Translations under genes and position numbers: made by a program
Notes under the pieces: generated by a model
The model's database searches: none
What the model saw: only the letters and a program-made list of their open reading frames with translations
Told to the model about the DNA's origin: nothing
Virus record (IMG/VR): IMGVR_UViG_3300021185_001079
Coordinates: 1-56,383 of that record
Length of the DNA stretch: 56,383 bases
From: a virus
Lineage: Duplodnaviria; Caudoviricetes
Reading direction: 5' to 3' (one strand)
In this document: positions 41,650-55,739 of the stretch, piece by piece
Layout of the letters: the number at the start of each line of letters is the position of its first letter
Position numbering within the stretch: position 1 is the first letter of the stretch

Positions 41650-41908
41650 ATCGTATTTACCCGAAATGGGTCCTAGCGTAAAAAAAAATTGCTGCGCGGA
41701 TTTTTTAGGTGAAGTACTTACAGAAGTGAGGTGGTGATTTTGCATCACTCCATTTTTTAAGGCTTTGTTGTTTGTTTTTGTAAAGTAAAAAATTTAATTA
41801 TATAACCCCGACCCCCCGAGATTTATTTTTTTATTTTTTTTATAACATAAAAAAATTTGTAATGCAAGTGTTTTTTTTACTTGCATTACTATTTTATTTG
41901 TGCTAGTG

Positions 41909-42121
41909 TTATTTTAAAAAACTTAACACTTGTGCTTCCGTGTAGCGTGTGCAGTCGTTTGCATTAGCTGTGCGCAAGCTGCGCTGTAGCTGTTGCGTGT
42001 AAGGTGCTACGCTAAACGCATCTGCGCGATAGTAGTGTTGCAGCTTTGCTACTGCTGTTGCTGATAGCTTTTGTGCGTATGTTAAATGTGTTAAGCCCGG
42101 CTCCGTTACAACGTAATACAT
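41909..42121 (-). CDS. Early hypothetical protein (GA/GG-depleted island 1)
   Basis: AAGGAG RBS and promoter-hairpin upstream. Confidence 0.65.
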   Translation of the reverse strand: MYYVVTEPGLTHLTYAQKLSATAVAKLQHYYRADAFSVAPYTQQLQRSLRTANANDCTRYTEAQVLSFLK

Positions 42122-42201
42122 AGTGCGCTCCTTGTGCTGCTATACAACTGTTGTAGCACTTGCGCTATACAAACGCAAGTGCTAATTTGCTTTTATTTAA
42201 A

Positions 42202-42396
42202 TTAATTTTGCCACGCTAACACTTTGCCGTTTTGCACTTGCACTATGCAGCGTTGCATGTGTCCGCATACAGTGCGCACGTTTGCATAGTAATGCACAAT
42301 GTCGCCTGCTGCTGCTTTAACTTTGTTATAGTATTCAAAGCTAGTAAACGTAAGCGAGTTGTGTACAAGCGCATGTTTGTTACATAATGTTTTCAT
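42202..42396 (-). CDS. Early hypothetical protein (island 1)
   Basis: AAGGAG RBS before MKTL. Confidence 0.65.
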   Translation of the reverse strand: MKTLCNKHALVHNSLTFTSFEYYNKVKAAAGDIVHYYANVRTVCGHMQRCIVQVQNGKVLAWQN

Positions 42397-42482
42397 TTGC
42401 AGCTCCTTGTTTGCTATACATACTGTGTAACAGCTTTTGCATAACAGTGCAAGTAAAAAATGCACTGTTATGCTTTTTATTT

Positions 42483-42740
42483 TTAATTAATATACGTTAG
42501 TTGTGCGTGTATATTTTCACGTACTACAGTGTCTAACGTGCTGCTTAGTGCAGCGTTTGCTAAACTTGCTGCATTAGTATGCTGTGCGTAGTTTGCATAT
42601 ACATACTGCAATGCTTGCACATTGTCTAATATGCTGTAGTCATTTTTTTCCGCTACGCTGTCATGTGCAGCAGCTTTTATTTTTGTAGCTAAATTTTCAA
42701 TAGTTGCAATAACTGTGTTTGTGTATTTTGTGTTTTGCAT
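42483..42740 (-). CDS. Early hypothetical protein (island 1)
   Basis: 85 aa, no G/P/W; leader AAAGTAGTAAAAC-ATG. Confidence 0.65.
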   Translation of the reverse strand: MQNTKYTNTVIATIENLATKIKAAAHDSVAEKNDYSILDNVQALQYVYANYAQHTNAASLANAALSSTLDTVVRENIHAQLTYIN

Positions 42741-42835
42741 GTTTTACTACTTTGCTGTTTTGTTGCTTACAAATATGTTGTAGCATGTTAAGCGTAGCAT
42801 AGCAAGCACTAACTGCACTTGCTATGCTTTTTATT

Positions 42836-43354
42836 TTAGTTTAAGTTAAGCGTTTGCTTGTTAGCTGTTATGCTGTTAATATTGTGCAGCGCTATTGTGC
42901 GTACTACAACGCTATGCGTTACGTTGTTAGTAGCGTTGTACGTTGTGCTTGTGTTAGTTAGCAGCTTTTGTGCTGCACTAGCAGTTAAGTATTGCGCTAC
43001 TTGCTGCTTTGTTGCTGCTACGTTGTTAATTGTATACGTGCTGCTTGCTGCGTTAAAAATTGCATACAAATACAAATTGTTGTTTGTTTTGTGCTGCACA
43101 ATGCTATAGCAGCTTGTGTGCTTAAAGTAATTGCTGCTAGTAACAAAATTTTGTGTGTTTGCATTTTTGTTTACTGCGTTTGCAAATACGCTAGTAGCAG
43201 CTTTAATGTTTGCAAATAGCTGCACGTTTGCGCTAGTAGTTTTTTTAATTACTACAGCTTTGTGCGCTGCTGCTGTTTTAACTGTTGTAGTGTAGTTTAC
43301 GTTTGCAAAAGTTGTGCTTGCGTTTGCTAGTAATTTTTTTATTTGCTGTTGCAT
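42836..43354 (-). CDS. Early hypothetical protein lacking D, E, G, P and W
   Basis: 172-aa ORF with promoter TTTACA-N17-TATACA and leader matching its neighbours. Confidence 0.75.
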   Translation of the reverse strand: MQQQIKKLLANASTTFANVNYTTTVKTAAAHKAVVIKKTTSANVQLFANIKAATSVFANAVNKNANTQNFVTSSNYFKHTSCYSIVQHKTNNNLYLYAIFNAASSTYTINNVAATKQQVAQYLTASAAQKLLTNTSTTYNATNNVTHSVVVRTIALHNINSITANKQTLNLN

Positions 43355-43512
43355 GTTTTACACTTTGCTGTTTGTTGCTTACAAGTAGTGTATAGCAGCT
43401 TTTAAAACAGTTGTAAAGCATAAAATTAATTTATTTTAGCTATTGCATTACATTTTTATTTGTGCTACAGTTAAGTAGCGGCCTCTGAGGTTTGGTCCGA
43501 CTGAGGTAAAAG

Positions 43513-43543
43513 TAGGAGACAACTGTTGCCAGCTGCCTCCTTG
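43513..43543 (-). terminator. Probable terminator, GCAA tetraloop
   Basis: Minus-strand AGGAGGCAGCUG-GCAA-CAGUUGUCUCCU followed by ACUUUU. Confidence 0.65.
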
Positions 43544-43603
43544 TGGGGTTGTGTGTGCCGCTTGCGCCTGTGTGCTACACCTCTGCGCCTTAGCTGCGGC
43601 TTG

Positions 43604-43732
43604 CTAGTATCCAAAGCCATATGCAATATACATTACGACTGGTGGAATGGCGAATAAACTTAATACGCTTAGTACATCTTGTGCAAAGTTCTTTAGCGTT
43701 AAGTCTGCTAGTACTTCGTTTAAATAATTCAT
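43604..43732 (-). CDS. Small membrane protein (not in ORF track)
   Basis: AAGGAG RBS; MNYLNEVLADL...MYIAYGFGY, 42 aa. Confidence 0.6.
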   Translation of the reverse strand: MNYLNEVLADLTLKNFAQDVLSVLSLFAIPPVVMYIAYGFGY

Positions 43733-43794
43733 CGTGTGCTCCTTTGTTGCTTAGTAGTACACTAGCGCATTGCTGCGCTAGTGTCAACACCTAA

Positions 43795-43968
43795 TTAGTC
43801 ACTCATGCAACGTTCCATTGCTTCGCCTTGTGCAAGTGTAATGCCATACTGTTCAAAGTGCTGTGCATCTGCTGCTACACGCATCTCTGTTGCTTTACGT
43901 GCTTGCTCGGCAGTAAGCCCTGTTTGCATTGCGTTAAGGAAAAATTCGTCTTGCTGTAAGTCTGTCAT
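43795..43968 (-). CDS. Early hypothetical protein (not in ORF track)
   Basis: GAGGAG RBS; MTDLQQDEFF..., 57 aa. Confidence 0.65.
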   Translation of the reverse strand: MTDLQQDEFFLNAMQTGLTAEQARKATEMRVAADAQHFEQYGITLAQGEAMERCMSD

Positions 43969-44027
43969 GTTGTGCTCCTCATTTGCTATACAAGTACACT
44001 AGCGCCTTTCAACGCTAGTGTCAACAC

Positions 44028-44246
44028 CTAATTAAAATTAACTTTGACAACTTTGCCTGCAGGATCAAACATTACACTAACACGTTTGGTTGCAGTGCGG
44101 CCTCTGGTTCTAGTTTCCCACCAAGCATCCGCTTCTTCTTGTGTGTCAACCAACAGCACTGAATTCTCCAAGTCGCCTTGTGTTGCGGGCTTACCTGTGT
44201 TGCTGTCCATTTGTCTTTTGCTAAACTGTCCTCTAAGTTCCCACAT
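44028..44246 (-). CDS. Early hypothetical protein
   Basis: AGGAGG RBS before MWEL. Confidence 0.65.
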   Translation of the reverse strand: MWELRGQFSKRQMDSNTGKPATQGDLENSVLLVDTQEEADAWWETRTRGRTATKRVSVMFDPAGKVVKVNFN

Positions 44247-44341
44247 CGTGTTACCTCCTGTGTAAGCAACGTGTAACACGATGCGGGACCTGTGTCAACC
44301 AATAATAACGATCTTATAGCAGAGATCTTATTGGCTCTTAC

Positions 44342-44620
44342 CTAGCTGAGGGCATTGGCTAGGCGTAGTGTTTCCAGTTTGTGCATAATGCCCGAGACAT
44401 CAGCTGCGTCTAGTCCAGGAATAACATCATCGGAGAACTCTTCGTAGTAGTCAGGATGTATGCCTGGCAGTTGGACAAACCTATCGTCATCAAACACAGC
44501 CACTTCGTACAGTGTTTTCCACGGCTCCAGTATTACACTCAGTTGATACTGGCCGAACTGTGCCTTGGCTTGCTTGATGCCTGTTTGTGGGACTGTTTTA
44601 AATTCTAGCGTGTTAAACAT
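44342..44620 (-). CDS. Early hypothetical protein
   Basis: GAGGAG RBS before MFNT; LYEVAVF motif. Confidence 0.65.
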   Translation of the reverse strand: MFNTLEFKTVPQTGIKQAKAQFGQYQLSVILEPWKTLYEVAVFDDDRFVQLPGIHPDYYEEFSDDVIPGLDAADVSGIMHKLETLRLANALS

Positions 44621-44680
44621 TGTGTGCTCCTCTGTTGCATGTTTGTTGTAGCACATTGCTGTGCCACTGTCAACCTCTTT

Positions 44681-44923
44681 TTAATCTAAATCGCACTGCC
44701 ATCTGTTGTTCTTAAATTCTGCCACCAACTTAGTGTCCATCATTCCAAACGGGCTGCAAATGGTTGCATATGGCGATGATGCGTCATTGAGGAACAAGTC
44801 AAAGCGCTGGCAACGGATCGTGCCTTCTTCTGTGCCGAAGCCTGAATTAAAGAAGAAAACATCTAATGTGTCTCCGCTTTGGATGTTGCGTGTTTTTGGA
44901 AATTTGCTTACGAACGGTTTCAT
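44681..44923 (-). CDS. Early hypothetical protein
   Basis: Cassette promoter and RBS. Confidence 0.65.
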   Translation of the reverse strand: MKPFVSKFPKTRNIQSGDTLDVFFFNSGFGTEEGTIRCQRFDLFLNDASSPYATICSPFGMMDTKLVAEFKNNRWQCDLD

Positions 44924-44974
44924 CTTGTGCTCCTCTGTTGCTTAGTAGTACACTAGTGTCTGGCAGTCCCAGTG

Positions 44975-45262
44975 TCAACCAAAAACAGCGTATTCGTTAT
45001 TCTTTTTCAGGTGCCATTTCTCTACTACAGGAAGACCAAATTCATCTTCGTCCACAACGATCACAGCAACCGTTTTCTTAACGTGCGCAAACCTATAGCC
45101 TGTCATGCCGCATACACCGCCGCCACCTACCCAAACCTTGTGTGGGAAGTCTTCGGAAAAGCCTGAAATAGGTTCATCGTTGACACTGTATTCAAAATAG
45201 TTACCAGTGTCCTTCTCTACGAAGCAACCAATTGGATCTTTTGTGTAAGTGTAATAAGCCAT
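44975..45262 (-). CDS. Early hypothetical protein
   Basis: Cassette promoter and AGGAGG RBS. Confidence 0.7.
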   Translation of the reverse strand: MAYYTYTKDPIGCFVEKDTGNYFEYSVNDEPISGFSEDFPHKVWVGGGGVCGMTGYRFAHVKKTVAVIVVDEDEFGLPVVEKWHLKKNNEYAVFG

Positions 45263-45334
45263 GTGCGCCTCCTGCTGCCTTGCTATACAAGTACACTAGC
45301 GCCTTTCAGCGCCAGTGTCAACCTTTTTATTTGG

Positions 45335-45496
45335 TTACGATTTGGTTACAGTCACTCTGTGATGAGCACGACCTGAGTAGGCGCTTGCACTTACCCCTGC
45401 AATGCGACAGCCTTTTTCATGTGCTGAGTGTTCGCCCAGTGCCATTACTTCGCCGATCAACTTGCTGTCATAATATACTTTGTATCTCTCAAACAT
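45335..45496 (-). CDS. Early hypothetical protein
   Basis: GAGGAG RBS before MFER. Confidence 0.6.
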   Translation of the reverse strand: MFERYKVYYDSKLIGEVMALGEHSAHEKGCRIAGVSASAYSGRAHHRVTVTKS

Positions 45497-45559
45497 AATT
45501 GCTCCTCGTTTGCTATACAAGTAAACTAGCGCATTGCTGCGCTAGTGTCAACACCTAAA

Positions 45560-45883
45560 TTAGTTGTCTAGCGCATCATTTAGCGCTTCAATCACAGCCG
45601 CTACCGCCTTGTCGTTGTATCCGCCTATGTGCCAATCGTAGCTGGCTACAGGTGTGTATCCTGTTTTCCAATTGTATATGCTTGCTACAATGTACTCATC
45701 TGCCTGTGTGTCGTACAGCTCTATGTTCCACTCTGTGTTTACTTTCTCATTCCTGTCATCGATGTTGTATGTTGGAGCACCAAATGCAATTACTAAGTCT
45801 GCATAGGTTGTGCGTACTGTGCCTAACAAGCTAGTGCCGTTTACTGCTACGTCTGCGCCTGTATCTGCAATTGCCATAACCAT
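45560..45883 (-). CDS. Early hypothetical protein
   Basis: GTSLLG...KVNTEW...IYNWK...WHIGG; AAGGA RBS. Confidence 0.7.
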   Translation of the reverse strand: MVMAIADTGADVAVNGTSLLGTVRTTYADLVIAFGAPTYNIDDRNEKVNTEWNIELYDTQADEYIVASIYNWKTGYTPVASYDWHIGGYNDKAVAAVIEALNDALDN

Positions 45884-45964
45884 TTGTAAGTTCCTTGTTT
45901 GTGTTCCTATACAAACATCATAGCGTCTTTGCACTGGGCTGTCAACACCTAAATGAAAGTTTTT

Positions 45965-46144
45965 TTAGAAACCAAAGTACCACCAAACCACTTTGTAAGC
46001 AACCCAACATCCAAATAGAATGGTAACATTGTAAAGGAGGCTCGCCCAGACTTGTTCGAAGAATCCACTCTCTTCGTTACATGCGTGACACCTCGGTGCG
46101 AAGAAACTCTTGTCCATAGTGTGACAGTTAATGCATATTGCCAT
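45965..46144 (-). CDS. Small Zn-ribbon membrane protein
   Basis: CINC...CHAC plus C-terminal hydrophobic helix; AGGAGG RBS. Confidence 0.6.
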   Translation of the reverse strand: MAICINCHTMDKSFFAPRCHACNEESGFFEQVWASLLYNVTILFGCWVAYKVVWWYFGF

Positions 46145-46165
46145 AAGCGGCCTCCTTTGTGTGTT

Positions 46166-46242
46166 TGGTGCTCCCACTAGGACTCGAACCTAGGACCAAA
46201 GCGTTATGAGCGCTCTGCTCTAACCAACTGAGCTACAGGAGC
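46166..46242 (-). tRNA. tRNA with CAT anticodon, probably Ile2 (lysidine) rather than Met
   Basis: Cloverleaf, CTCATAA loop, C4/C5 in acceptor stem, encoded CCA. Confidence 0.85.
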
Positions 46243-46252
46243 ATTATTATAT

Positions 46253-46328
46253 TGGTGAGCCGTACAGGATTTGAACCTGTGACCCACTGATTAAAAGTCA
46301 GTTGCTCTACCAACTGAGCTAACGGCCC
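46253..46328 (-). tRNA. tRNA-Lys(TTT)
   Basis: GGGCCGTTAGCTCAG...CTTTTAA...GGTTCAAATCC...CCA. Confidence 0.95.
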
Positions 46329-46338
46329 ACTTTATATT

Positions 46339-46422
46339 TGGTACCCGCGGCCGGACTCGAACCGGCACGCCTTGCGGCCACAGATTTTAAGTCTGTTATG
46401 TCTACCATTCCATCACGCGGGC
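46339..46422 (-). tRNA. tRNA-Leu(TAA)
   Basis: Long variable arm, CTTAAAA loop, GGTTCGAGTCC, CCA. Confidence 0.95.
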
Positions 46423-46426
46423 GTAT

Positions 46427-46503
46427 TGGCGGTCCCTATAGGATTCGAACCTATGACCTACTGCTTAGAAGGCAGTTGCTCTATCCAGCTGAGCTAAGGA
46501 ACC
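46427..46503 (-). tRNA. tRNA-Arg(TCT)
   Basis: CTTCTAA loop, GGTTCGAATCC, GCCA end. Confidence 0.95.
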
Positions 46504-46516
46504 TTTGTTGTAATTT

Positions 46517-46545
46517 ACTATAGCATAGTCATTGTGTGTTGTCAA
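46517..46545 (-). promoter_or_regulatory. Sigma70 promoter of the tRNA operon
   Basis: TTGACA-N17-TATAGT. Confidence 0.8.
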
Positions 46546-46805
46546 TCACAATCATCATGCCAGCTTGAATTAATCTCTCCTCTGTAAAAGACATTGTGAG
46601 CCCATTCGTCTGCGTCATCAAAGAACTCTGAGCTCACAAGGAACACGTTCGACTCGTCCGTCTCCTCGATGTCAACATTCATTCTAGCGGCTTCTTCATA
46701 CAGTGTGTCATATGTGTCCGCAGTCATCGCCGCATACACTACAACCTGTTCGTCTTGCACCTCCCAGACTCCTTTGGCAGTTGCTTCTTCGTGTCCTAAA
46801 ATCAT
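46542..46805 (-). CDS. Early acidic hypothetical protein
   Basis: AAGGAG RBS. Confidence 0.65.
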   Translation of the reverse strand: MILGHEEATAKGVWEVQDEQVVVYAAMTADTYDTLYEEAARMNVDIEETDESNVFLVSSEFFDDADEWAHNVFYRGEINSSWHDDCD

Positions 46806-46901
46806 CTTGCTCTCCTTACATGTATAGCAGCGGGGCCTGTCGCCTCTGCGTTGTGTGTTACACTAGCACATTGCTGCGCTAGTGTAAAGTGTTTTTATTA
46901 G

Positions 46902-47150
46902 CTATGCTAATACGTCATATGCTGCTTCTATAATATTATGCGCACAGCTGTCTGTAGCAAAGCCCTCCTCCGCTGCAAAATCAACGCTGCTGCTGCACAT
47001 AATAACATCTGTTTGCCAATTAATGTTATGTTGCTTAAACACTGCTGCTAATTGTGCTGCTGTGTTTACTGCTGCAACTTGTACGTTGTTAACAGTTACA
47101 ACAATTACTGCGTCTTGTGCGTTTAAAAATACGTTGTTTGTTTTTTGCAT
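46902..47150 (-). CDS. Early hypothetical protein (island 2)
   Basis: GAGGG RBS; TTTACA variant cassette promoter. Confidence 0.7.
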   Translation of the reverse strand: MQKTNNVFLNAQDAVIVVTVNNVQVAAVNTAAQLAAVFKQHNINWQTDVIMCSSSVDFAAEEGFATDSCAHNIIEAAYDVLA

Positions 47151-47222
47151 AATACTTCCCTCTATGCTTGTTAACTTATAAAGTACACTAGCACATTGCT
47201 GCGCTAGTGTAAAGTGTTTTTT

Positions 47223-47630
47223 TTAATATGCTGCAAAAATATTTGCTGCTAAGTTTGCAAATGTGCTGTCGTTAGCAGCAGCGTCATTACACGCATCCTC
47301 AAATTGCTCCGCTATGCACTCCCTGTACTCTGTGTCGTAGCATAGCAGTGCTTGTGCTGCTTGTGCTAGTGTAAACGTAAACACAGCACTATCGTCGTCT
47401 GCTGTTGCATAAAGCATTTGCAAATTGTCTAGCACTTCCATTGCGTCCTGTAAACGCACAAAGTACTGCTCGTCGTCGTCTGTTACGCAGCTTGCGTTTA
47501 ATGCTGTTAAGTTTTGCAATACGTCTGCAATAAACTGTACTACAAACGCTTTGTGTGCTTGTGTAAGTGTAAAGTTTACAACTGTATTGTTGTTTAAATT
47601 TGTAAAAACTTGTGTGTTTACTGTATACAT
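47223..47630 (-). CDS. Early hypothetical protein lacking G, P and W (island 2)
   Basis: 135 aa; leader AAAGTAGTAAAAAAC-ATG. Confidence 0.7.
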   Translation of the reverse strand: MYTVNTQVFTNLNNNTVVNFTLTQAHKAFVVQFIADVLQNLTALNASCVTDDDEQYFVRLQDAMEVLDNLQMLYATADDDSAVFTFTLAQAAQALLCYDTEYRECIAEQFEDACNDAAANDSTFANLAANIFAAY

Positions 47631-47808
47631 GTTTTTTACTACTTTGCTGTTTGTTGCTTACAAATTTGTTGTAGCAGTTTTAAAACAGCAACGCAAGCAC
47701 AAATTGCAATAAAATGTGCTTGCTATACTTTTTTTACTAAACTATACTTTAGTATAGTTCGCCCCTACTTATGCGCACTTGACAATACTAAAGTAGGGGC
47801 CTCTGAAT

Positions 47809-48072
47809 TCAGCCTTCGTAAACTCCTAGCACGCCGGGGTTGATCCACTCTGCAAACAATCCGTTTGCCTCTAGCACATCGTTAATCTCTTTCTTTACAC
47901 CAAACCGGTATGCAGGTTCGTTGCAATACTCTTCGTAGTAGTCTGCCCACACAGTGTCATAGTTGGACTCTGCGCTGATGCGGAATGTATCTTCGCCGTT
48001 GTCACCGCCGCGGATTACTGGTGCGCCCATTTTGCGTAGTGCGTCAAAAGCTGTTCTATAGTTGCGTTTCAT
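47809..48072 (-). CDS. Early hypothetical protein
   Basis: Cassette; WADYY...AEWINPG. Confidence 0.7.
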   Translation of the reverse strand: MKRNYRTAFDALRKMGAPVIRGGDNGEDTFRISAESNYDTVWADYYEEYCNEPAYRFGVKKEINDVLEANGLFAEWINPGVLGVYEG

Positions 48073-48131
48073 TGTGTGCTCCTCATTTGCTATACAAGTA
48101 CACTAGCGCCTTGCAGCGCTAGTGTCAACAC

Positions 48132-48296
48132 CTAATCTTCCATAAAACGCTCTGAAAGTTCGTTACAGTCTAACATGTCTGCAACATCATCTGTTGACAT
48201 ATATTTCAATGCCATTACTAGCATGTCTTCTGCTGATACCATTCCTTCGTCAATCAGCTCAAGTGCTGTGTCTCTGCTGTTAGTAATGCGTTTCAT
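48132..48296 (-). CDS. Early hypothetical protein (not in ORF track)
   Basis: MKRITNSRDTALELIDEG..., 54 aa; its TAG stop lies in the next cassette repeat. Confidence 0.65.
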   Translation of the reverse strand: MKRITNSRDTALELIDEGMVSAEDMLVMALKYMSTDDVADMLDCNELSERFMED

Positions 48297-48360
48297 TGTG
48301 TGCTCCTCATTTGCTATACAAGTACACTAGCGCATTGCTGCGCTAGTGTCAACACCTAAT

Positions 48361-48597
48361 TTACTCTTCTACTTCACGTCCTTCTGCAAACAGCATCAAC
48401 TCTACAGCCAACTGCCGCGCCTGCGTTCTGTCAAGCTGCAAGCTATTAAACCATTTGTCTGTTGCCTCTGCGCGAGCTTTGGGCTTGCGTTGCGTTATTT
48501 GTAAACACTGCAAACGATCCGCTCCGCCCCAGAAGCGTGTTTGTGTAAGTTCGTTTTGTGCTCTGCACCCGGGGACATTTCTAAGTTGCGTTGACAT
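48361..48597 (-). CDS. Early hypothetical protein
   Basis: Cassette; TRFWGG...CLQITQ. Confidence 0.7.
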   Translation of the reverse strand: MSTQLRNVPGCRAQNELTQTRFWGGADRLQCLQITQRKPKARAEATDKWFNSLQLDRTQARQLAVELMLFAEGREVEE

Positions 48598-48668
48598 ATC
48601 TAGTGCTCCTCATTTGCTATACAAGTACACTAGCGCCTTGCGGCGCTAGTGTCAACACCTTATTTTAA

Positions 48669-48869
48669 TTAAAATTCAGCTTGCAGCTCTTCTCTAAAAT
48701 CTGCTTGCGGCTTGACCCACTCTTGCATCATTGATACAGCTTCAATATCTGATGTAGCGTTACGTGTCACCATTTCAATTTCATCGTCTGCATAACACTC
48801 TACTACAATATCCCAACCATTAACTTCGTAATTGGCATTTGCAAACGCTTTAACTACTTCTACAAACAT
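48669..48869 (-). CDS. Early hypothetical protein
   Basis: GAGGAG RBS; NYEVNGWDIVVEC. Confidence 0.7.
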   Translation of the reverse strand: MFVEVVKAFANANYEVNGWDIVVECYADDEIEMVTRNATSDIEAVSMMQEWVKPQADFREELQAEF

Positions 48870-48956
48870 AGCTTGCTCCTCTGTGTTGCTATGTAGTAGT
48901 TATAGCAAAGGTAAAAGCGCATTGCAACCAAAAAATGCACTTTTACCAAATCTTTT

Positions 48957-49475
48957 TTATGCTTCGTGATTGCCTCCCCAGACAGTCTCCAGCTCTTCCT
49001 CTGAGGCGTACCAGTCAGCTGCACAAAAGTCTTCGATCAAACTATGTAGTACAGGATCTTCTTCTGCTGTGGTTTCTAATAGTTCGTCTACATTCTCCCA
49101 GTAATCATCGCCGCCCTCTGAGTCATACAACCCAATGAAGCACAGACCTGGTTCAAAGTATTTCAACTCAATGTAACATGAGTCCCAGTCTTGTGCTAGT
49201 GTAGTAAACGCCTCTACAGGTGGGCTCCATGCTGAGTCAAAATAACCTTCTATTGTGCTAGTGCCGTCTCCGTTGTCTATGTACTCAAGACCTTCTGTGC
49301 TTACATCCCATTTGGTTCCCCACTTGCTGAGTGCTGCTTCTCTATCGTACTCTCCGATAGGTGCAATGGCTTCTAGTAGTCCTTCTTCGCTGTCTTGTTC
49401 AATGATTGACTTCAGCTGCACCAATGTGCTAGTGTTGCCTGTGATTAGTAATGAGTTGCTGCACCAGTTAGGCAT
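48957..49475 (-). CDS. DUF1281/YubB-like ferredoxin-fold protein
   Basis: MPNWCSN, WGTKWD, FDSAWSPP and YFEPG. Confidence 0.75.
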   Translation of the reverse strand: MPNWCSNSLLITGNTSTLVQLKSIIEQDSEEGLLEAIAPIGEYDREAALSKWGTKWDVSTEGLEYIDNGDGTSTIEGYFDSAWSPPVEAFTTLAQDWDSCYIELKYFEPGLCFIGLYDSEGGDDYWENVDELLETTAEEDPVLHSLIEDFCAADWYASEEELETVWGGNHEA

Positions 49476-49620
49476 AGTGTTCGTCCTCCCCTAAGATCTC
49501 TGTGTCTACGATGTCTGCATGTTCAAAGGCGTAGTCGCACTCTGCAATCACTTCCTGTTCGTTAGCGTCACGCAGTATCTCTAGCGCAACGGTAATATAT
49601 ATCTTGCGTGTAGTATCCAT
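49468..49620 (-). CDS. Early hypothetical protein (not in ORF track)
   Basis: 50 aa, MDTTRKIYITV...; GAGGAG upstream; overlaps the next start. Confidence 0.55.
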   Translation of the reverse strand: MDTTRKIYITVALEILRDANEQEVIAECDYAFEHADIVDTEILGEDEHYA

Positions 49621-49709
49621 CTAGCATTGCTCCTCTATCTGTGCTTAACTTTTATAGTCATCTGCTATGCGTGTCAACACCTAAATGCACACGCATAGCA
49701 GCGGGGCCT

Positions 49710-50165
49710 TTATGCTACAAACGCCTCTGCGTCTGCTCTAATCTGCTCTATGATGTTAGCAGTCTTGCTTGGATTGCTACGCAGCTCTGCGGGTATGTTG
49801 CTGCCCATAAACGTGTAGGGCTTGTTCCAGCCTCCGCCTATGTTGATGTCTATGTAGTGGCTGCGGTGGAAGTAATCAGACATTGAATCGTCTTCGTTAA
49901 AGTACCGCTCGCCCTTGCAAGCGTCTAGCAGCTCGTTTAAGAAGTCACGTGCGATGCCGCTGTAGTGTGTGTCAATATGGTAGACGTTTACGTCTTGATA
50001 TACATCTCTCATGTACTCTGAAAAGTCAATGCGTCCTGAGCGCAGTGTAACGACTAGCGTCATGTGATGACGGACAGCAATTGAACCCTTCATGTCGTAC
50101 TTTTTAAGTACAGCTTTGATGCCTGGTGCTAAACGTGCTTTGTCTTCTTTACTTACATATGCCAT
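49710..50165 (-). CDS. Early protein resembling a large-polyvalent-protein-associated domain (LPD25/29-like)
   Basis: MAYVS...KGSIAV...VNVYHI...DDSMSDYF...YIDINIG. Confidence 0.5.
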   Translation of the reverse strand: MAYVSKEDKARLAPGIKAVLKKYDMKGSIAVRHHMTLVVTLRSGRIDFSEYMRDVYQDVNVYHIDTHYSGIARDFLNELLDACKGERYFNEDDSMSDYFHRSHYIDINIGGGWNKPYTFMGSNIPAELRSNPSKTANIIEQIRADAEAFVA

Positions 50166-50402
50166 TTGCAAACCCTCTTTGCTTGTTGCTATATAAACAT
50201 CATAGCGCCGTTGCGCTACGATGTCAACAGTTATTTTACATATCTGGAAATTTATCTACAGCCTTCTCAGCTGCCTCAAACATCGTGTAGCCTAAGCTGA
50301 GCAAGTGATCCTTTTGATCTCTACCAATCAACATGCCGTTGATGATGCTGTCTACCTTGTCTAGTGCCTCGTCTAGTTGGGCCAGTCTGTCTGTATTGTT
50401 AC

Positions 50403-50606
50403 TCATGCTGTCTTCCTCCCTGTGCGTAAGTTGTACTCAAAACGCAACCCGCCTAAGCAATCACGGCAGCGGATATAATCAAAGTATCCTTGCGTCTTCA
50501 TGGCTGCGTGTACAGTCTTGCCATCTGCTGCTGAGCTTACAGTGTCTACCCATTCCTCAGCGCCGCCGTCTTTTACTCCAAAAATCTTAAAGCTTCTACG
50601 TGCCAT
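50403..50606 (-). CDS. Early hypothetical protein
   Basis: GAGGAG RBS and cassette promoter. Confidence 0.65.
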   Translation of the reverse strand: MARRSFKIFGVKDGGAEEWVDTVSSAADGKTVHAAMKTQGYFDYIRCRDCLGGLRFEYNLRTGRKTA

Positions 50607-50681
50607 TGTGTTTGCTCCTCTGTGTATGCTTTGTTATACGCTCAACAATCGACAGTGTCAACACCTAATTTAAATAAAGTT

Positions 50682-50810
50682 GCCCCCGCAGCTGAGGGCG
50701 GGCTGCGAGGGCTATATGGAGCAGAGCGTGAGGGCGGCGCTTACTGCTCCGTCTACACTAGATGAGGGGCTCTAGCGTAGTATGCTGCAATGCGGAAGGC
50801 TGAGGGCTTA
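50682..50810 (-). ncRNA. Putative multi-hairpin RNA with GCCCUCA loops
   Basis: Three adjacent hairpins with different stems and a shared CCCUCA loop, plus a fourth copy at the ATPase stop; ends in a U-rich tail. Confidence 0.6.
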
Positions 50811-51809
50811 GCCACGTCGCATAACAGTATTTTCAGCCATTGACTCCCAGCTATCTGGAAATGCTTTGGCTAAGTCTGCAATCTTAAGGACAGTTCGCAA
50901 ACTCAGTTCTCTTAGCTTTGACTTATTAATGTCAACAAAGTCGACAATGTCTTGAATCAGTTCATCGGAGAACTTATAATCATTTAGCATTCCGTCATTG
51001 GTGATCTGCTTGATTCTGAGCATCTTCTCTCTGTCTGAGTCAATAGTCAAGTCCATGTAGTGACAGCGTGACTCTAACGCACTCAAGTGCTCGCGGATCT
51101 TACCTTTGGCTTTGTCAAACTTCAGATTGGTTACAAAGATTGCACTTGCTTCAAAGTTAAAGCTATCTGGTACACCTTCGTTGCGCAGCTTGTATGAGTC
51201 TGTATTCCAGTGAATGGTGCGCTTCTTCTTAGAGTCTAATGCTGCCTTTAGGATGTTCAAGCTTAGTTCGTCGCTAAAGATTGAGTCGCAGTCATCAAAC
51301 ACAACTACCTTGCCCTTGTCTGCCATCTTGTATAGCTTACAGTACAAGCCAATGGGCGACATTGCACCTTTGACAACTTCGTAACGTTGCTCACCACCTA
51401 GTGCTTCTATAGTTGCGTAGCGGTCTAGTACTGTCTCAATACCGTGTGACTTACCTACGCCCGGGGGACCCGACACAATCATTGCTCGCACATCGCCTTT
51501 GCGAACAGCCTTTGTCATGTCTGACAGCATGTCAAATCTGTCTCTAAGGCGTTCAATGATCTCACTGTCAGTTTCTTCACGCTGTGTAGTCTTAGTATCT
51601 AAGTCACACAACTCGTAATCCCCCGGGCCGTCGCACTTGATCTTAATGTTGCGATCCGGAAAGCCGTTAACGGCAGAGCCGTCTACTGTTACAAAGCCGC
51701 CTTGTGAGCCAACTTTGAATGTTTCCACTAGTGGAAATACAATACCACTCATGTCTGTGTCGTTACCGCGAATCTTGTATACGCCGTTTATAATTCTTAC
51801 ATTTGCCAT
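50808..51809 (-). CDS. AAA+/P-loop ATPase
   Basis: SGPPGVGKS, VVFDDCD, LKAALD, FVTN and ALESR. Confidence 0.85.
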   Translation of the reverse strand: MANVRIINGVYKIRGNDTDMSGIVFPLVETFKVGSQGGFVTVDGSAVNGFPDRNIKIKCDGPGDYELCDLDTKTTQREETDSEIIERLRDRFDMLSDMTKAVRKGDVRAMIVSGPPGVGKSHGIETVLDRYATIEALGGEQRYEVVKGAMSPIGLYCKLYKMADKGKVVVFDDCDSIFSDELSLNILKAALDSKKKRTIHWNTDSYKLRNEGVPDSFNFEASAIFVTNLKFDKAKGKIREHLSALESRCHYMDLTIDSDREKMLRIKQITNDGMLNDYKFSDELIQDIVDFVDINKSKLRELSLRTVLKIADLAKAFPDSWESMAENTVMRRG

Positions 51810-51879
51810 CTTGTTGCCCTTTTGTTTCTAACCCTATGCACTTAATATAGCACATAGGGCAGTGTGTGTCAAGTCCTAA

Positions 51880-52152
51880 TTAGCCACCAATTGCCAACGG
51901 AGTTAGCAGGCTTGCTGTAACTTTCCAATTGGTCATTCCGGCTTTGACTATCACAGTCTTCTGGTTGACCTTTGTAACTGTGCCAGTAACAGTTTCGCCT
52001 CTGCGTCCTTCAAAGCTCACTGTGTCGCCTACTCGCAGGCTACGTGCTGTGTTCTTTGCTAGGAATGTGCGGCGGAGTTTGATCTCGTCAACTACACGGT
52101 TCAGTTCTTCTGCGTTCATGTTACGAACGTTATCTAATACTGTCATCATCAT
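51880..52152 (-). CDS. Early SH3/KOW-like small protein
   Basis: LRVGDTVSF...GTVTKVNQKTV...WKV. Confidence 0.65.
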   Translation of the reverse strand: MMMTVLDNVRNMNAEELNRVVDEIKLRRTFLAKNTARSLRVGDTVSFEGRRGETVTGTVTKVNQKTVIVKAGMTNWKVTASLLTPLAIGG

Positions 52153-52206
52153 TAGCTTTGCTCCTCATTTGCTATACAAGTAAACTAGCGCCTTTCGACA
52201 CTAGTG

Positions 52207-52449
52207 TCAACACCTAAATAAACAATAATCAACTAATTTACTATATACTTGATCACGTACATCAGTATCAAAGGCTTCCTCAAAGCCTGTACGACCACTT
52301 AGGGTGAGTAGTTGCTCCTGCACCCACTTCCATACCTTTTCGTCGCTGGTGCTGCGAGGAAATTGACTTGCAGCATACACAATCTCTTGTACCTTGCGAT
52401 CACCTTCGGCGCTAAACATTCCGAAGCCATTTATATTAAAGTAACTCAT
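52207..52449 (-). CDS. Early hypothetical protein
   Basis: Cassette; the ORF end runs into the next repeat. Confidence 0.65.
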   Translation of the reverse strand: MSYFNINGFGMFSAEGDRKVQEIVYAASQFPRSTSDEKVWKWVQEQLLTLSGRTGFEEAFDTDVRDQVYSKLVDYCLFRC

Positions 52450-52513
52450 GTCGTGCTCCTCATTTGCTATACAAGTACACTAGCGCCTTGCGGCACTAGT
52501 GTCAACACCTAAT

Positions 52514-52867
52514 TTAGGCTGCTGCTAAAATACTTGGACCGCGGTTTGCGGGCTTGTGCAGGGTCACGTGCGTTGCTGAGTAACGCTCGCTACTGTCTGC
52601 TTTGTTAACAAAGCTGGTGTACTTGTAGGGGTCGTAAGTTACAGCTACAGTGTCCTCTGTGAACAGCTCGGGCTGCTCTACAAGTGTGCCACGTACAAAC
52701 GCATGCACGTTCTTCTTGCCTTCTTCACGCACCTTGCGGTTGCCTGCGGCTTGCACTGCGAAGGTTACGTCCTCCAGCTGTACGTTGTAGGTATGGGCAA
52801 TTACTTTGCCTTTGTGACGAACGCTGAACAAGTTCTTATGTAAGTTGTAATATACTTCTACACGCAT
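52514..52867 (-). CDS. Early hypothetical protein
   Basis: VYYNLHK...KKNVHAFVRG...YDPY; RBS TGAGGG before ATG. Confidence 0.7.
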   Translation of the reverse strand: MRVEVYYNLHKNLFSVRHKGKVIAHTYNVQLEDVTFAVQAAGNRKVREEGKKNVHAFVRGTLVEQPELFTEDTVAVTYDPYKYTSFVNKADSSERYSATHVTLHKPANRGPSILAAA

Positions 52868-52939
52868 TTTCAAGCCCTCACTTGTTTGTTGCTATAGTAG
52901 TACACTAGCGCCTTTCAACGCTAGTGTCAACACCTTTTT

Positions 52940-53149
52940 TTAATCTTGTAGGTTAGTTATTGCATTATTTAGGAGCTTCATCTCGTCAGCAAACATCTCG
53001 TCGCTCATGTTCGCCAGCGCATATGTCATTGCGCTTTCTAAATAGCCCGCAACGTATGCTTGCCCATTGTGTGGGTGCTTTGCTTCCGCAGCGTGTGCAA
53101 ATGCTTTTAAAGTGTTTCTTGCGCTGTCCAGTTTAGTTACAAAGTCCAT
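52940..53149 (-). CDS. Early hypothetical protein
   Basis: GAGGAG RBS; AYVAGYLES. Confidence 0.65.
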   Translation of the reverse strand: MDFVTKLDSARNTLKAFAHAAEAKHPHNGQAYVAGYLESAMTYALANMSDEMFADEMKLLNNAITNLQD

Positions 53150-53210
53150 AGCGTGTGCTCCTCTGTTGCTATAGTAGTACACTAGCGCCTTTCAGCGCCA
53201 GTGTCAACAC

Positions 53211-53525
53211 CTAATTGTTAGGTGTTACACGTTTAAGCACGGAGATATAATAATCCCTTGAGCTCTGCGGCTCACCTGCATCGTCAGGCAAGTCGTTTAG
53301 CCATTCGTCGTATGCGCGAATCTCGCATGGGTATTCCTTCCATGCAATATTGTTCTCCATGCACATGGCGGCTACAAATGCCATAGCGTCGGCTGGACGG
53401 TCTAGGTCCTCTACTAGATAGGTGTCGCCGCCTTTGAACTTCCAGTGGCTGAAGCCGTCGGCATGCTTGCCGCTGTCAGCGTGTGCACCGTAGTTTTCTA
53501 AAGTCTGTGTATGAACTATAAACAT
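53211..53525 (-). CDS. Early hypothetical protein
   Basis: TQTLENYGAH...WKFKGG. Confidence 0.7.
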   Translation of the reverse strand: MFIVHTQTLENYGAHADSGKHADGFSHWKFKGGDTYLVEDLDRPADAMAFVAAMCMENNIAWKEYPCEIRAYDEWLNDLPDDAGEPQSSRDYYISVLKRVTPNN

Positions 53526-53588
53526 GTCGTGCTCCTCATTTGCTATACAAGTACACTAGCGCCTTGCAGCGCCAGTGTCAACACCTAA

Positions 53589-54113
53589 TTAGTCTTCTGG
53601 GTCGTTTTCTTCCCAACTATTAATTTCTTCTTGATCCTCAATCCAGTCTTCGCAGCTCTGACAATGACTGCCCCAGCTACCGTCTGCAACATCGTCGCAC
53701 TCTTCGCAGTAGTGTTGCTCTTCATCTTCGTGGTCAAACATGCTTTCTGTATTGGCCTGCTCTAGCAGTTGCGGCCTGTCTAGGATGTGTTGTACTGTTT
53801 GCGTTACAACTTCTTCTATGCTTACCTGCAGCGCATCGCCTGTGTAGTTTCCGCTGTACAAGCGTCCTAGCGTGTAAGGTTCTATGATGGTCTGCAGAGT
53901 GCTGTTGATAACTCCCTTGTTGTAGAGGAAGTTAAGTGCGCCGCTTGTGTTGTTGCCCATTCCGTTGTTGTAAAGGTCATAAGCTAGTCTAGTACAAGCA
54001 CGTAGCAGCTCTCCTGCTACAGTATCTGATTCTCCGCTGGCAGGTACAAGCGCAGTTAAACGTGTGTAGTCTTCTTGCAGTTTGCCATTGCCGTTCCAGT
54101 AAGTGTTTTCCAT
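53589..54113 (-). CDS. Early hypothetical protein with C-terminal Zn ribbon
   Basis: TYWNGNGK, GELLRA, YDLYNNG and CEEC...CQSC. Confidence 0.7.
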   Translation of the reverse strand: MENTYWNGNGKLQEDYTRLTALVPASGESDTVAGELLRACTRLAYDLYNNGMGNNTSGALNFLYNKGVINSTLQTIIEPYTLGRLYSGNYTGDALQVSIEEVVTQTVQHILDRPQLLEQANTESMFDHEDEEQHYCEECDDVADGSWGSHCQSCEDWIEDQEEINSWEENDPED

Positions 54114-54188
54114 TTGCTTAATCCCTCTAGCATGGTTCAACTTATATGTACAACATAGCGCCTAAACGCTATGCTGTCAACACCTAAT

Positions 54189-54383
54189 TTACGTGCGTCC
54201 CATTAAAATATCGTAAGCACCTTGTTCTAGTGTGTCATCGTCCATCAGTTGTTCTAGCCCAAGTTGTTGTCTCAACACACGAGCTTGTGCGGTGCATTGC
54301 GCAAGTGTTGTGTTGTGGGCTGATTCTACAGTGTCCCATAGTGCTTCTTCTAGTGCAATTGCACGATCCTTCATGCGTCCCAT
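54189..54383 (-). CDS. Early hypothetical protein
   Basis: Cassette promoter and RBS. Confidence 0.65.
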   Translation of the reverse strand: MGRMKDRAIALEEALWDTVESAHNTTLAQCTAQARVLRQQLGLEQLMDDDTLEQGAYDILMGRT

Positions 54384-54448
54384 AGCGTTGCTCCTCTGTT
54401 GCTATACGAGTACACTAGCGCATCGCTGCGCTAGTGTCAACCCCTAAT

Positions 54449-54610
54449 TTAGTTCGCACTAGCAGTTTTATACAATTTTGATAGTTGTGCTTGTGTGACA
54501 GTGTACAAGCACGGCAGTGTAACATTGTGTGCATAACGCTGCTGCTGTGTTGCAAGGTCTACAATTAAAAGTGTATTGTAGTTAATTACAGTGTGTCCAA
54601 ATTTTGGCAT
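54449..54610 (-). CDS. Early hypothetical protein (not in ORF track; GA/GG-poor)
   Basis: GAGGAG RBS; MPKFGHTVIN..., 53 aa. Confidence 0.55.
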   Translation of the reverse strand: MPKFGHTVINYNTLLIVDLATQQQRYAHNVTLPCLYTVTQAQLSKLYKTASAN

Positions 54611-54673
54611 CGTGTGCTCCTCAGCTTGTAGCGTACACTAGCGCATTGCTGCGCTAGTGTCAACCACTTTTTT

Positions 54674-54862
54674 TTATTCGTCTGCTGCTGCTTCTTCTAG
54701 CATTGTGTTAACATCGTAGCCGTACACTAGCATCTCTTGCAACAATTGCTTGCACGTCTCATAGCTGTCCCACTGTTGTATTTCAAACTCGTCCTCGCAG
54801 TCATACGCATTGCTTAGTGCTATTTGCATGTTGTAAAACATTTTTGTGTGTGCTGCTTGCAT
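54674..54862 (-). CDS. Early hypothetical protein (island 3)
   Basis: GGAG RBS; GA-free promoter variant upstream. Confidence 0.65.
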   Translation of the reverse strand: MQAAHTKMFYNMQIALSNAYDCEDEFEIQQWDSYETCKQLLQEMLVYGYDVNTMLEEAAADE

Positions 54863-55086
54863 AGTAGTGCTCCGTTTTTGTTTGTTGCTACAGTTACGTT
54901 GTAGCAGCTTTTAAGCAGCAGCGCAAGCAAAAAATGCATAAAAATAAAATTAATTTTTTTTAATTTAGCTGTTGACCTTTGCACTAGATGATGTTATACG
55001 TTGTGTGAGGTCAGCAAAGCGGCGAGGGGCGCAAGTAGGGGACGGGTTAGGAGTGCGGGGTGTGACCTCCGGTTCTAGCGAGAATC

Positions 55087-55117
55087 CAAAAGAACGAGCG
55101 ACACCGTGGTGCCGCTC
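55087..55117 (-). terminator. Probable terminator
   Basis: Minus-strand GAGCGGCAC-CACG-GUGUCGCUC followed by GUUCUUUU. Confidence 0.65.
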
Positions 55118-55122
55118 CTGGT

Positions 55123-55473
55123 TCACATGCTCCAGTAGGTCTCGGTAGCAGGGCTCATATGCGCTGGCGTGTTCACCGGCTCATCGAACTCCTTAGTGGG
55201 ATCCATTAAGCTTGATCTGCGCCGTGACTTCTCAATCATTAAGTGGAAGTATTCACAGTCTGCAACAGCATACCGAAAGATTGGATTGTTGGGCGAATCA
55301 GTTCCCTCTGTGTGCCGCGCTTCGCTCGCATACCATTCAACACAAAACCTAGTGATTGCAGCCTTTGCTGCGGCCATAGTTTTGTAGGTCTTGCGGTAGT
55401 CCGCTCGAACGACGCCTCGGCTGTCCATCTTGCCCATGATAAACGTTGACGATCTTTCATATACGTAAAACAT
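55123..55473 (-). CDS. Early hypothetical protein
   Basis: YKTMAAAKAAITR...NTP...SPATETYWSM; GAGGG RBS. Confidence 0.7.
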   Translation of the reverse strand: MFYVYERSSTFIMGKMDSRGVVRADYRKTYKTMAAAKAAITRFCVEWYASEARHTEGTDSPNNPIFRYAVADCEYFHLMIEKSRRRSSLMDPTKEFDEPVNTPAHMSPATETYWSM

Positions 55474-55515
55474 TTCTCTTCCCTCTAGCTCTGTTTCTAC
55501 ACTATTAATATAGCA

Positions 55516-55668
55516 TCACTCGAACACCGTGTCAACCACTTTCTTTTGAGTCATCTTCACATATGTTCGAGCGAGATCATGCCGCGATCGAACCTCACAC
55601 AGCGCACGAGCATCCGCCTCTGATGTACAGTAAGCCACAACTCGATCTTCTTCTAGTATCATAAACAT
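55516..55668 (-). CDS. Early hypothetical protein
   Basis: AGGAGG RBS before MFMI. Confidence 0.5.
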   Translation of the reverse strand: MFMILEEDRVVAYCTSEADARALCEVRSRHDLARTYVKMTQKKVVDTVFE

Positions 55669-55739
55669 CTCTGATCCTCCTAGTACTAGTAGTAACATCA
55701 ACAACCGAACCTGTCAATGGCCAAAAAGAACTTTTCTAA

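Follow-up and report, generated by a model that had tools for sequence, protein, structure and literature searches.

The early region of a 56,383-nucleotide (nt) contig from a virus of the Caudoviricetes (Duplodnaviria; IMG/VR record IMGVR_UViG_3300021185_001079) contains islands of short genes from which two dinucleotides are missing on one DNA strand. The whole of this contig was analyzed and is referred to here as the window. Within the islands, the plus strand, which is the template of the minus-strand genes, lacks GA and GG (together, GR), and the RNA-like strand lacks the reverse complements TC and CC (together, YC). The evidence strongly supports long-term purifying selection, rather than hypermutation, as the process that keeps the 5′-GR-3′/5′-YC-3′ step out of these islands, which are complete early gene units, promoter region included. 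The original prediction on this DNA had described a loss of GA and GG from promoters and ribosome-binding sites (RBSs) inside the islands; that reading misses the primary constraint, which is a template strand without GR or, equivalently, an RNA-like strand without YC.

From 41.9 kb to the contig end, the minus strand carries approximately 37 short genes, most of them with their own promoter cassette. Three stretches of the plus strand in this region are free of any GA or GG (42357-43479, 46835-47780, and 54607-54973; 2439 nt together), as compared to approximately 116 GR expected from a frequency of 4.75% of positions in non-island early DNA. The longest GA-free runs on this strand span 42356-43487 (1131 nt) and 46767-47781 (1014 nt), the longest GG-free runs span 42099-43480 (1381 nt) and 46834-47796 (962 nt), and the next-longest GA or GG gap anywhere in the window is at most 477 nt. 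Eight control dinucleotide pairings yielded no gap of at least 200 nt in the window or in the contigs of four relatives. All island genes in the window are on the minus strand, making the template the strictly purged strand. The C content of the RNA-like strand is unchanged (0.18-0.21), with every C preceded by A or G. The observed/expected ratio (O/E) of YC on the sense strand falls from 0.80 in late genes to 0.53 in other early genes and to 0 to 0.16 in island genes, a gradient that is compatible with any early-acting reader of the motif.

The loss of GA and GG from the RNA-like strand is a weaker, local second layer atop the YC purge. The O/E of sense GR is 0 in island A2, 0.31 in island A1, and 0.45 in island B (Table 1), as compared to 0.83 in other early genes. 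Almost all sense GR that remains in the islands is obligatory, falling on codon positions 1 and 2 of Asp, Glu, and Gly or on positions 2 and 3 of Trp, and in island A1 the GA and GG of the RNA-like strand amount to little more than those that Asp, Glu, and Gly codons require. On the plus strand, CC is absent from 42650-43482 and TC from 42697-43484, with the two jointly absent from 42698-43481. Absence of the motif from both strands is confined to this last interval and to the class II cassettes (Table 1); elsewhere the purge affects a single strand.

Islands of the same kind and orientation were identified in relatives G001 (2078 nt), G003 (1359 nt), and G002 (950 nt), and truncated purged runs were identified in L008, L076, and L017. 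For p135, a protein encoded in island B, 184 metagenomic relatives were found and 80 loci were taken, spanning 46-99% amino-acid identity. The matched segments contain no YC in 68 of the 80 loci, one or two in five, and at least three in seven; among full-length open reading frames (ORFs), 42 of 46 contain none, where synonymous-codon resampling expects approximately 20. Collectively, 63 distinct zones totaling 65.5 kb contain 82 YC, as compared to a YC frequency of 6-7% of positions in the flanking DNA. Non-obligatory GR is also depleted in the p135 family (9.1 versus a null of 14.7). The nearest cultured relative, the Pseudomonas jumbo phage PA5oct (58% identity in the terminase and 56% in the helicase; 33% GC), has no island, its longest GR-free and YC-free runs being 311 and 244 nt, respectively, and G004 (357 kb, rated complete) has no GR- or YC-free run of at least 300 nt. 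The conserved feature is the strand-specific absence of TC and CC from the RNA-like strand, not a purge of both strands, and the island genes are members of a conserved set of small genes in this lineage. Contigs from RNA libraries in three or four studies include pieces of island genes, p172 among them, at a depth of 2-4; since DNA may have been present and contigs are blind to transcription, strand, and level, they were not used as evidence.

The purge is kept across homologs whose synonymous sites have diverged, and homologs of normal composition exist, which argues for long-term selection and against hypermutation. Gene pairs diverged at 17-29 synonymous codons are still purged. When the codons of the window island genes were resampled (2000 draws), the mean was 5.6-26 YC per gene and 0 was never reached, the minima being 1-12 YC (3-12 for the four longer genes). 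Homologs of normal composition include distant p82 (17-25 YC), p85 in G003 (10 YC), and p172 in L073 (39 YC and 46 GR). Passive hypermutation, whether by a context-specific deaminase or by oxidative damage, or the arrival of foreign DNA of another composition, is extremely unlikely to account for this pattern. The RNA-like strand of the islands is enriched in TA and CA, as might be expected of C>A changes at YC; however, the purged state is conserved over 46-99% protein identity, C is retained, and the dinucleotides that deamination would produce are not in excess (YT O/E of 1.12-1.30 versus 1.16 in the flanks). The sharp island edges at gene-unit borders, the existence of homologous genes in both purged and normal forms, and the at least five state changes that well-supported branches force in a quick tree of p172 likewise weigh against it.

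Other causes of dinucleotide avoidance were rejected. Avoidance of ultraviolet (UV) dimers conflicts with the enrichment of TT on the template strand of the islands (sense AA of 12-19% versus approximately 9%). GG and GA are hot spots of guanine oxidation, and their avoidance as such was set aside in view of the same TT enrichment. CRISPR systems use protospacer-adjacent motifs of the forms CC, TTC, and NGG; a motif on either strand suffices for them, yet a single strand is purged here.

Selection on the dinucleotide step reaches into protein composition. In p172, encoded in island A2, direct reading of the sequence indicates that each G-ending codon precedes a codon that starts with C or T, and the predicted model has a predicted local distance difference test (pLDDT) score of 96. 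Asp, Glu, Gly, and Pro of the normal homolog are matched in the alignment by varied residues (Asn, Thr, Ala, Gln, Ser, Lys, and others), which are not mainly G>A products. The p172 family comprises 165 representative clusters; most members have 15-30 acidic residues, and 15 of the best 150 have at most two. The low-acidic members (13 of 129 rows) are scattered in the quick tree.

A fold search with p172 returned no match in the PDB and four matches in BFVD (E <= 0.001), which are uncharacterized phage proteins, and a fold search with p135 (pLDDT 89) returned no PDB match with an E value below 0.79. Protein searches of p135 and p82 against cultured phages returned no match. Pfam and PHROGs yielded nothing above noise for ten island proteins, six normal-composition members of the p172 family, or the L073 homolog. 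Like its neighbors, p135 is small and acidic.

The borders of the purge coincide with those of gene units. Of 32 upstream edges at which a promoter could be called, 27 have their last YC ahead of the -35 element and five have it within the promoter, and none has it downstream of the -10 element; in the window, motif-free DNA reaches 48-85 nt upstream of -35. The 17-nt spacer between the two elements contains a YC in one of 39 island promoters versus 113 of 158 non-island promoters, and the number of GR per spacer is 0.56 versus 1.56. Downstream, the purge stops at the next cassette or within some tens of bases of the final stop codon. The rare YC in the islands of relatives cluster in two conserved intergenic motifs, namely a terminator U-tract together with a T/C-rich stretch abutting -35, and a hairpin loop in AGRCCCCGCTG. 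In the islands of relatives (e.g., L165 640-700, L152 1125-1165, and L175 1530-1580), the genes are separated by a conserved stretch that extends from the terminator hairpin to the -35 element by way of GTTTTCTAACAA..CTTTCTC and that holds most of the tolerated TC. Homologs of p82, p85, and p135 adjoin in one island in L126 (356-2032); in the window, they are divided between two islands, with the tRNA cluster and ordinary early genes (approximately 3.4 kb) in between.

Promoters were called by reading conserved cassettes by position, and their function is putative. A generic scan for sigma-70 promoters and terminators did not detect the cassettes and found no more sites than in shuffled sequence (10 versus a mean of 10.8). 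TTGACA-17-TAGTGT and its variants precede most minus-strand genes, and a standard stem, the inverted repeat ACACTAGCGC...GCGCTAGTGT, spans -35 to -10 in a dozen copies (by sequence reading). According to an automated table in which some starts are mis-assigned, TTGACA is the -35 element of 23 of 30 non-island genes but of none of seven island genes. The original claims that TTGACA prevails outside the islands and gives way to TTTACA or TTGCNN inside them were thus borne out, at the places given for the variants; GAGGAG, proposed as the usual RBS outside, is found at about half of non-island genes. Also as described there, down to the sequences themselves, the leaders of genes 42740, 43354, and 47630 contain neither GA nor GG, and they lack a Shine-Dalgarno (SD) sequence; the TTTACA copies at 46888 and 47213 were likewise correctly said to keep the standard stem.

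Across the family, TTGACA was identified in 24 of 39 distinct promoters of purged genes versus 137 of 158 other promoters, and the promoters within the islands of G001-G003 and of relatives with truncated runs keep TTGACA and a normal RBS. The original prediction had favored selection over hypermutation on the ground that TTGACA to TTTACA is a G>T change, not the G>A expected from deamination or UV. That preference stands on other evidence (conservation, retained C, and codon resampling). The G>T argument itself is weak because homologous promoters switch between TTTACA and TTGACA across many relatives in which GA and GG persist nearby, because those 24 of 39 promoters of purged genes are still TTGACA, and because TTTACW is a described early-promoter form in the cassettes of T4-type phages (PMC4122927).

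Table 1. Purged islands, cassettes, and promoter elements of the window (positions in the window).
Feature	Position	Strand	Description
Island A1	41900..42697	-	Genes 41909-42121, 42202-42396, and 42483-42740; plus strand almost GA/GG-free to 42356, wholly from 42357
Island A2	42698..43481	-	Both strands without GA, GG, TC, and CC; gene p172 with its promoter/leader and the promoter/leader of the next gene
Island B	46835..47780	-	Plus strand without GA/GG; genes p135 (47223-47630) and p82 (46902-47150)
Third small island	54607..54973	-	Gene 54674-54862 (62 aa), 0 YC on RNA-like strand; putative TTGCGC-17-TACAAC promoter
p172	42836-43354	-	172 aa; without Asp, Glu, Gly, Pro, and Trp
Class II cassette of p135	47631..47740	-	Hairpin, -35 TTGCGT (47691-47696), TGC-TACAAC, A-rich SD-less leader
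Class II cassette of p85	42741..42835	-	-35 TTGCTA (42800-42805), TACAAC, SD-less leader
Cassette of p172	43355..43481	-	-35 TTTACA (43412-43417), TATACA, SD-less leader; ~65 nt motif-free upstream of -35
Cassette of gene 42121	42122..42201	-	-35 TTGCGT (42173-42178), TACAAC, RBS AAGGAG retained
Cassette of gene 42396	42397..42482	-	-35 TTGCAC (42447-42452), TACACA, RBS AAGGAG retained
Standard-stem cassette before p82	47151..47216	-	-35 TTTACA (47208-47213), RBS AGAGGG retained
Standard-stem cassette	46806..46891	-	-35 TTTACA (46883-46888); downstream edge of island B; drives (putatively) non-island gene 46542-46805; contains AGGCCCCGCTG (46828-46838)
TTTACA -35	43412-43417, 46883-46888, 47208-47213	-	Cassette reading
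TTGCGT -35	42173-42178, 47691-47696	-	Cassette reading
TTGCAC -35	42447-42452	-	Cassette reading
TTGCTA -35	42800-42805	-	Cassette reading
TTGCGC -35 (eighth non-TTGACA site)	54921-54926	-	Cassette reading

A cassette of the form TTGCNN-17 nt-TGC-TACAAC with an A-rich leader precedes six purged genes of the window, and the SD-less TTGCNN/TACAAC cassette is common only to the window, L130, L131, L132, and L137. In its place, TTGACA, TATATT, and a GAGGG RBS are found in orthologs of p135 with 79-88% identity. This is replacement of a cassette; the SD-less form is a derived module swapped into one sub-lineage, not the product of point substitution, which further weakens the G>T argument. The TGCTTGC of the class II promoters was considered as a MotA box and ruled out by its spacing (21 nt to -10).

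On the minus strand, AGGCCCCGCTG occurs in five copies (46828-46838, 49699-49709, 55748-55758, 56188-56198, and 56331-56341), all on the early-gene strand and close downstream of promoter-like sites; none of 100 shuffles reached five (mean 0.3). In relatives, this motif lies in a hairpin loop and is the sole CCCC tolerated within purged islands, and it may act as a conserved, transcript-proximal control element.

With respect to what reads the step, we tentatively prefer, as a reading that falls somewhat short of probable, a mark or cut at the level of DNA that affects RNA polymerase over a reader of RNA. Either the phage or its host would place such a mark or cut on G-purine steps. Host RNA polymerase would be hindered by it on the template strand and, at the sites bound by polymerase and sigma, on either strand. 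Units free of the motif could then be expressed from the incoming genome ahead of everything else, and their products would presumably make the remaining genome usable. A DNA-level reader is favored because the purge spans DNA that is not transcribed by the local promoter (i.e., the 17-nt spacers and DNA upstream of -35) and because the reverse-complement motif is also depleted on the sense strand, to zero in the p172 unit. The shift of island promoters away from TTGACA, both in the window and across the family, points the same way. We also favor a single duplex step read on both strands as more economical than two unrelated readers of RNA, and the pattern fits a block that acts on gene bodies through the template strand and on polymerase-binding sites through both strands.

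Several observations weigh against a DNA-level reader. Matches to the TGT/DpdA, QueC, and C5-methyltransferase families were absent from G000-G005, which is weak evidence given contigs that are 9-73% complete; a search for the Tet_JBP family was uninformative, as its controls were silent. The 2-oxoglutarate (2OG) oxygenase of the window resembles prolyl hydroxylases (P4H-like). Approximately 30 other early units, with TTGACA and with GR on the template strand, must likewise be expressed, many relatives' island promoters retain TTGACA, and a few TC occur directly upstream of -35 in many relatives. A DNA-level reader does not predict a purge of the non-template strand in the p172 coding region or in the RBS of a leader, the spacer result may arise in part from homogenization of cassettes and from their hairpins, and the motif of the RNA-like strand, YC, is exactly what the primary site of Rho binds.

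The leading alternative is that early transcripts are immune at the level of RNA, being free of UC and CC against a reader of single-stranded RNA. Rho is the best-documented reader of 5′-YC, and the early transcripts would then be Rho-proof; GA/GG-free mRNA and SD-less leaders would confer immunity to a second reader, for instance a CmdT-like mRNA ADP-ribosyltransferase acting on GA or a RegB-like nuclease cutting GGAG. We consider this possible, if on balance unlikely. The purged strand tracks gene direction in all islands seen, and precedent for readers of RNA is strong. The clefts of Rho bind 5′-YC (PMC12360218). In vitro, Rho confines the transcription of T4 to immediate-early RNA, and T4 early mRNAs are cleaved by RegB within their SD sequence (PMC2988021). 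CmdT modifies GA in single-stranded RNA, including GA within the SD sequence, which would suit leaders that lack one (PMC11618068). Where TC is tolerated, it is in terminator U-tracts or in the stretch from terminator to -35, and early genes transcribed by the host polymerase are generally poor in YC. However, promoter spacers and DNA upstream of -35 are also purged, cooperative loading of Rho should tolerate an isolated YC, yet most genes have exactly zero, and the RNA-like strand of island A2 has more C (0.21) than G (0.14), which is odd for evasion of Rho. An RNA-level explanation also needs two independent readers whose motifs are reverse-complementary by chance, and the involvement of Rho presupposes that the host, of a phage lineage without a cultured member, has Rho.

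An enzyme of the host that attacks single-stranded DNA is an improbable explanation. It would act on the non-template strand exposed in transcription bubbles of a single-copy genome, as a YC-specific deaminase, a dC-specific endonuclease, or a DNA ADP-ribosyltransferase, and it accounts for the strand specificity, for the tie to transcription units, and for the weaker purge of the less exposed strand. T4 endonuclease IV cuts before dC in single-stranded DNA. No enzyme is known to take TC and CC alone, which counts against this explanation, as does the finding that promoter spacers, which stay double-stranded, are purged. Moreover, damage to the non-template strand does not stop that gene from being expressed, making zero tolerance that is specific to genes hard to explain. 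DarT2 acts on TCTC/TNTC in single-stranded DNA (PMC12945103, PMC11543638), in favor of such an enzyme, while DarT1 has no consensus motif (PMC11543638). It is highly unlikely that the purge serves better translation, in that YC-free mRNA cannot pair with a purine-rich RBS and has less structure overall. GA and GG steps do lack a Watson-Crick partner in RNA without UC and CC, and the island leaders are A-rich and look unstructured; nevertheless, only the vicinity of the RBS should matter, not 1-2 kb at zero tolerance, an RBS that would need protection is missing from three leaders, and hairpins persist in the islands.

Returning to a mark or cut on DNA, phages encode enzymes of a comparable kind; 5mYOX97 marks DNA post-replicatively in a dinucleotide context with a preference for NTC (PMC13229309). 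In G003, three paralogous ORFs of the tryptophan-halogenase family (122298-125284 and 137744-139210; E of 1e-85 to 1e-95) and a PF13759 2OG oxygenase (140481-141083) were identified (L088, L089). Such halogenase-family ORFs and the oxygenase are common to the island-bearing G003 and G002 and have no match in the island-less G004 and PA5oct. The contrast in gene content between island-bearing and island-less genomes comprises 10 ORFs and, with two genomes on each side, is a lead only. A joint reading, which we regard as conceivable but doubtful, is that many unrelated phages keep early "bootstrap" genes as dinucleotide lipograms. Each lineage would avoid its own two-letter step, here G-purine, against an undescribed dinucleotide-specific mark or cut, faced or self-made, that host RNA polymerase cannot pass or bind at; the p172 family would lift the block, and the paralogous flavin halogenase-like genes of G003 and G002 would be candidate makers of the mark.

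The window is an entire linear contig, estimated to represent approximately 16% of a genome, and it is a fragment from an abundant, uncultured lineage of marine jumbo phages; helicase homologs at 62-87% identity were identified in more than 600 viral contigs, and nearly identical contigs were encountered in several marine metagenomes. Plus-strand genes reach 40.8 kb and encode a T4-type large terminase, a RecA/UvsX-like protein, a UvsW-like helicase, a primase, a DnaB-like helicase, and a peptide deformylase. Between 16245 and 36123, sugar and transferase genes are dense amid replication genes (GT17, a methyltransferase, a cytidylyltransferase-cupin, GT8, DUF6716, the 2OG oxygenase, KdsA, KdsB, and a sulfotransferase); this set could serve in surface-sugar or DNA modification, and none belongs to a recognized DNA-modifying family. 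The GC content is 44-49% in the early region (43500-56383) versus 31-43% in the remainder of the contig (1-41000). Four tRNA genes (Met-CAT, Lys-TTT, Leu-TAA, and Arg-TCT) lie between islands A and B (46166-46503), and the tRNA-Arg is approximately 97% identical to that of several marine cyanophages. A near-identity search of island DNA against cultured phages returned matches to tRNA only. The PA5oct record (L210) has an annotated GTP cyclohydrolase and two QueD-like genes at 168449-171971, with no TGT-family match and no purged island.

The islands resemble several known systems in part. In the first-step-transfer region of T5 and the early region of T7, the DNA that is expressed first is free of target sites. 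There, as here, the genes needed first lack a motif that threatens the rest, and their products are thought to protect the remainder. The T5 and T7 motifs, however, are duplex restriction sites of 4-6 bp, whereas here two dinucleotides are avoided absolutely, strand-specifically, and at a cost in amino acids. Animal viruses suppress CpG against ZAP, UpA against RNase L, and TC against APOBEC3. In those cases as well, a short word is selected against as a host factor reads it, but the suppression is partial and genome-wide, in contrast to the local gene units at zero found here. Phages also modify DNA with 7-deazaguanine at GA/GGC. Phage hypermodification shares with the present case enzymes that mark DNA in a dinucleotide context, often encoded beside glycosyltransferase genes, and the window is rich in sugar and transferase genes. 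No such enzyme was detected here, however, and the available part of PMC13229309 describes no modification-free islands.

The cassettes themselves are similar to the PeSL cassettes of T4-type phages, of which TTTACW and TTGYVH variants have been described for other phages (PMC4122927). Shared features, here by sequence reading, are many near-identical units before small ORFs, each with a sigma-70-like promoter, a 17-nt spacer, and a stem-loop, and a modular exchange that is seen here in p135 orthologs served by different cassettes and in island genes that form one block (L126) or two (the window). In contrast to the present case, the PeSL papers describe the shuffling of genes and not the avoidance of a motif, and the nearest cultured relative here is PA5oct, a jumbo phage rather than a T4-type one. 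YC, which the RNA-like strand lacks, is exactly what the primary site of Rho binds (PMC12360218), but the island purge extends to DNA that the local promoter does not transcribe, and our literature search found no case of evasion of Rho by removal of every YC. CmdTAC offers a defense enzyme with GA specificity on single-stranded RNA (PMC11618068), matching the GA-free p172 unit and the three GA-free leaders, but it leaves the absence of TC and CC, the conserved layer, unexplained. The same search found no description of such dinucleotide-purged islands; supplementary files, which may hold relevant specificity data, were outside it.

Selection on a two-letter word has been strong enough to remove every Asp, Glu, Gly, Pro, and Trp from p172, a protein of 172 residues that is predicted to be folded, and to do so repeatedly within its family. 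This implies a powerful dinucleotide-reading activity in phage infection. If Rho were the reader, the islands would represent a new, cis-encoded escape from termination. If the reader is a mark on DNA, hypermodified phages would need unmodified "ignition" genes. The purged units would flag the genes that act first and, with them, candidate counter-defense or takeover proteins of uncultured marine jumbo phages.

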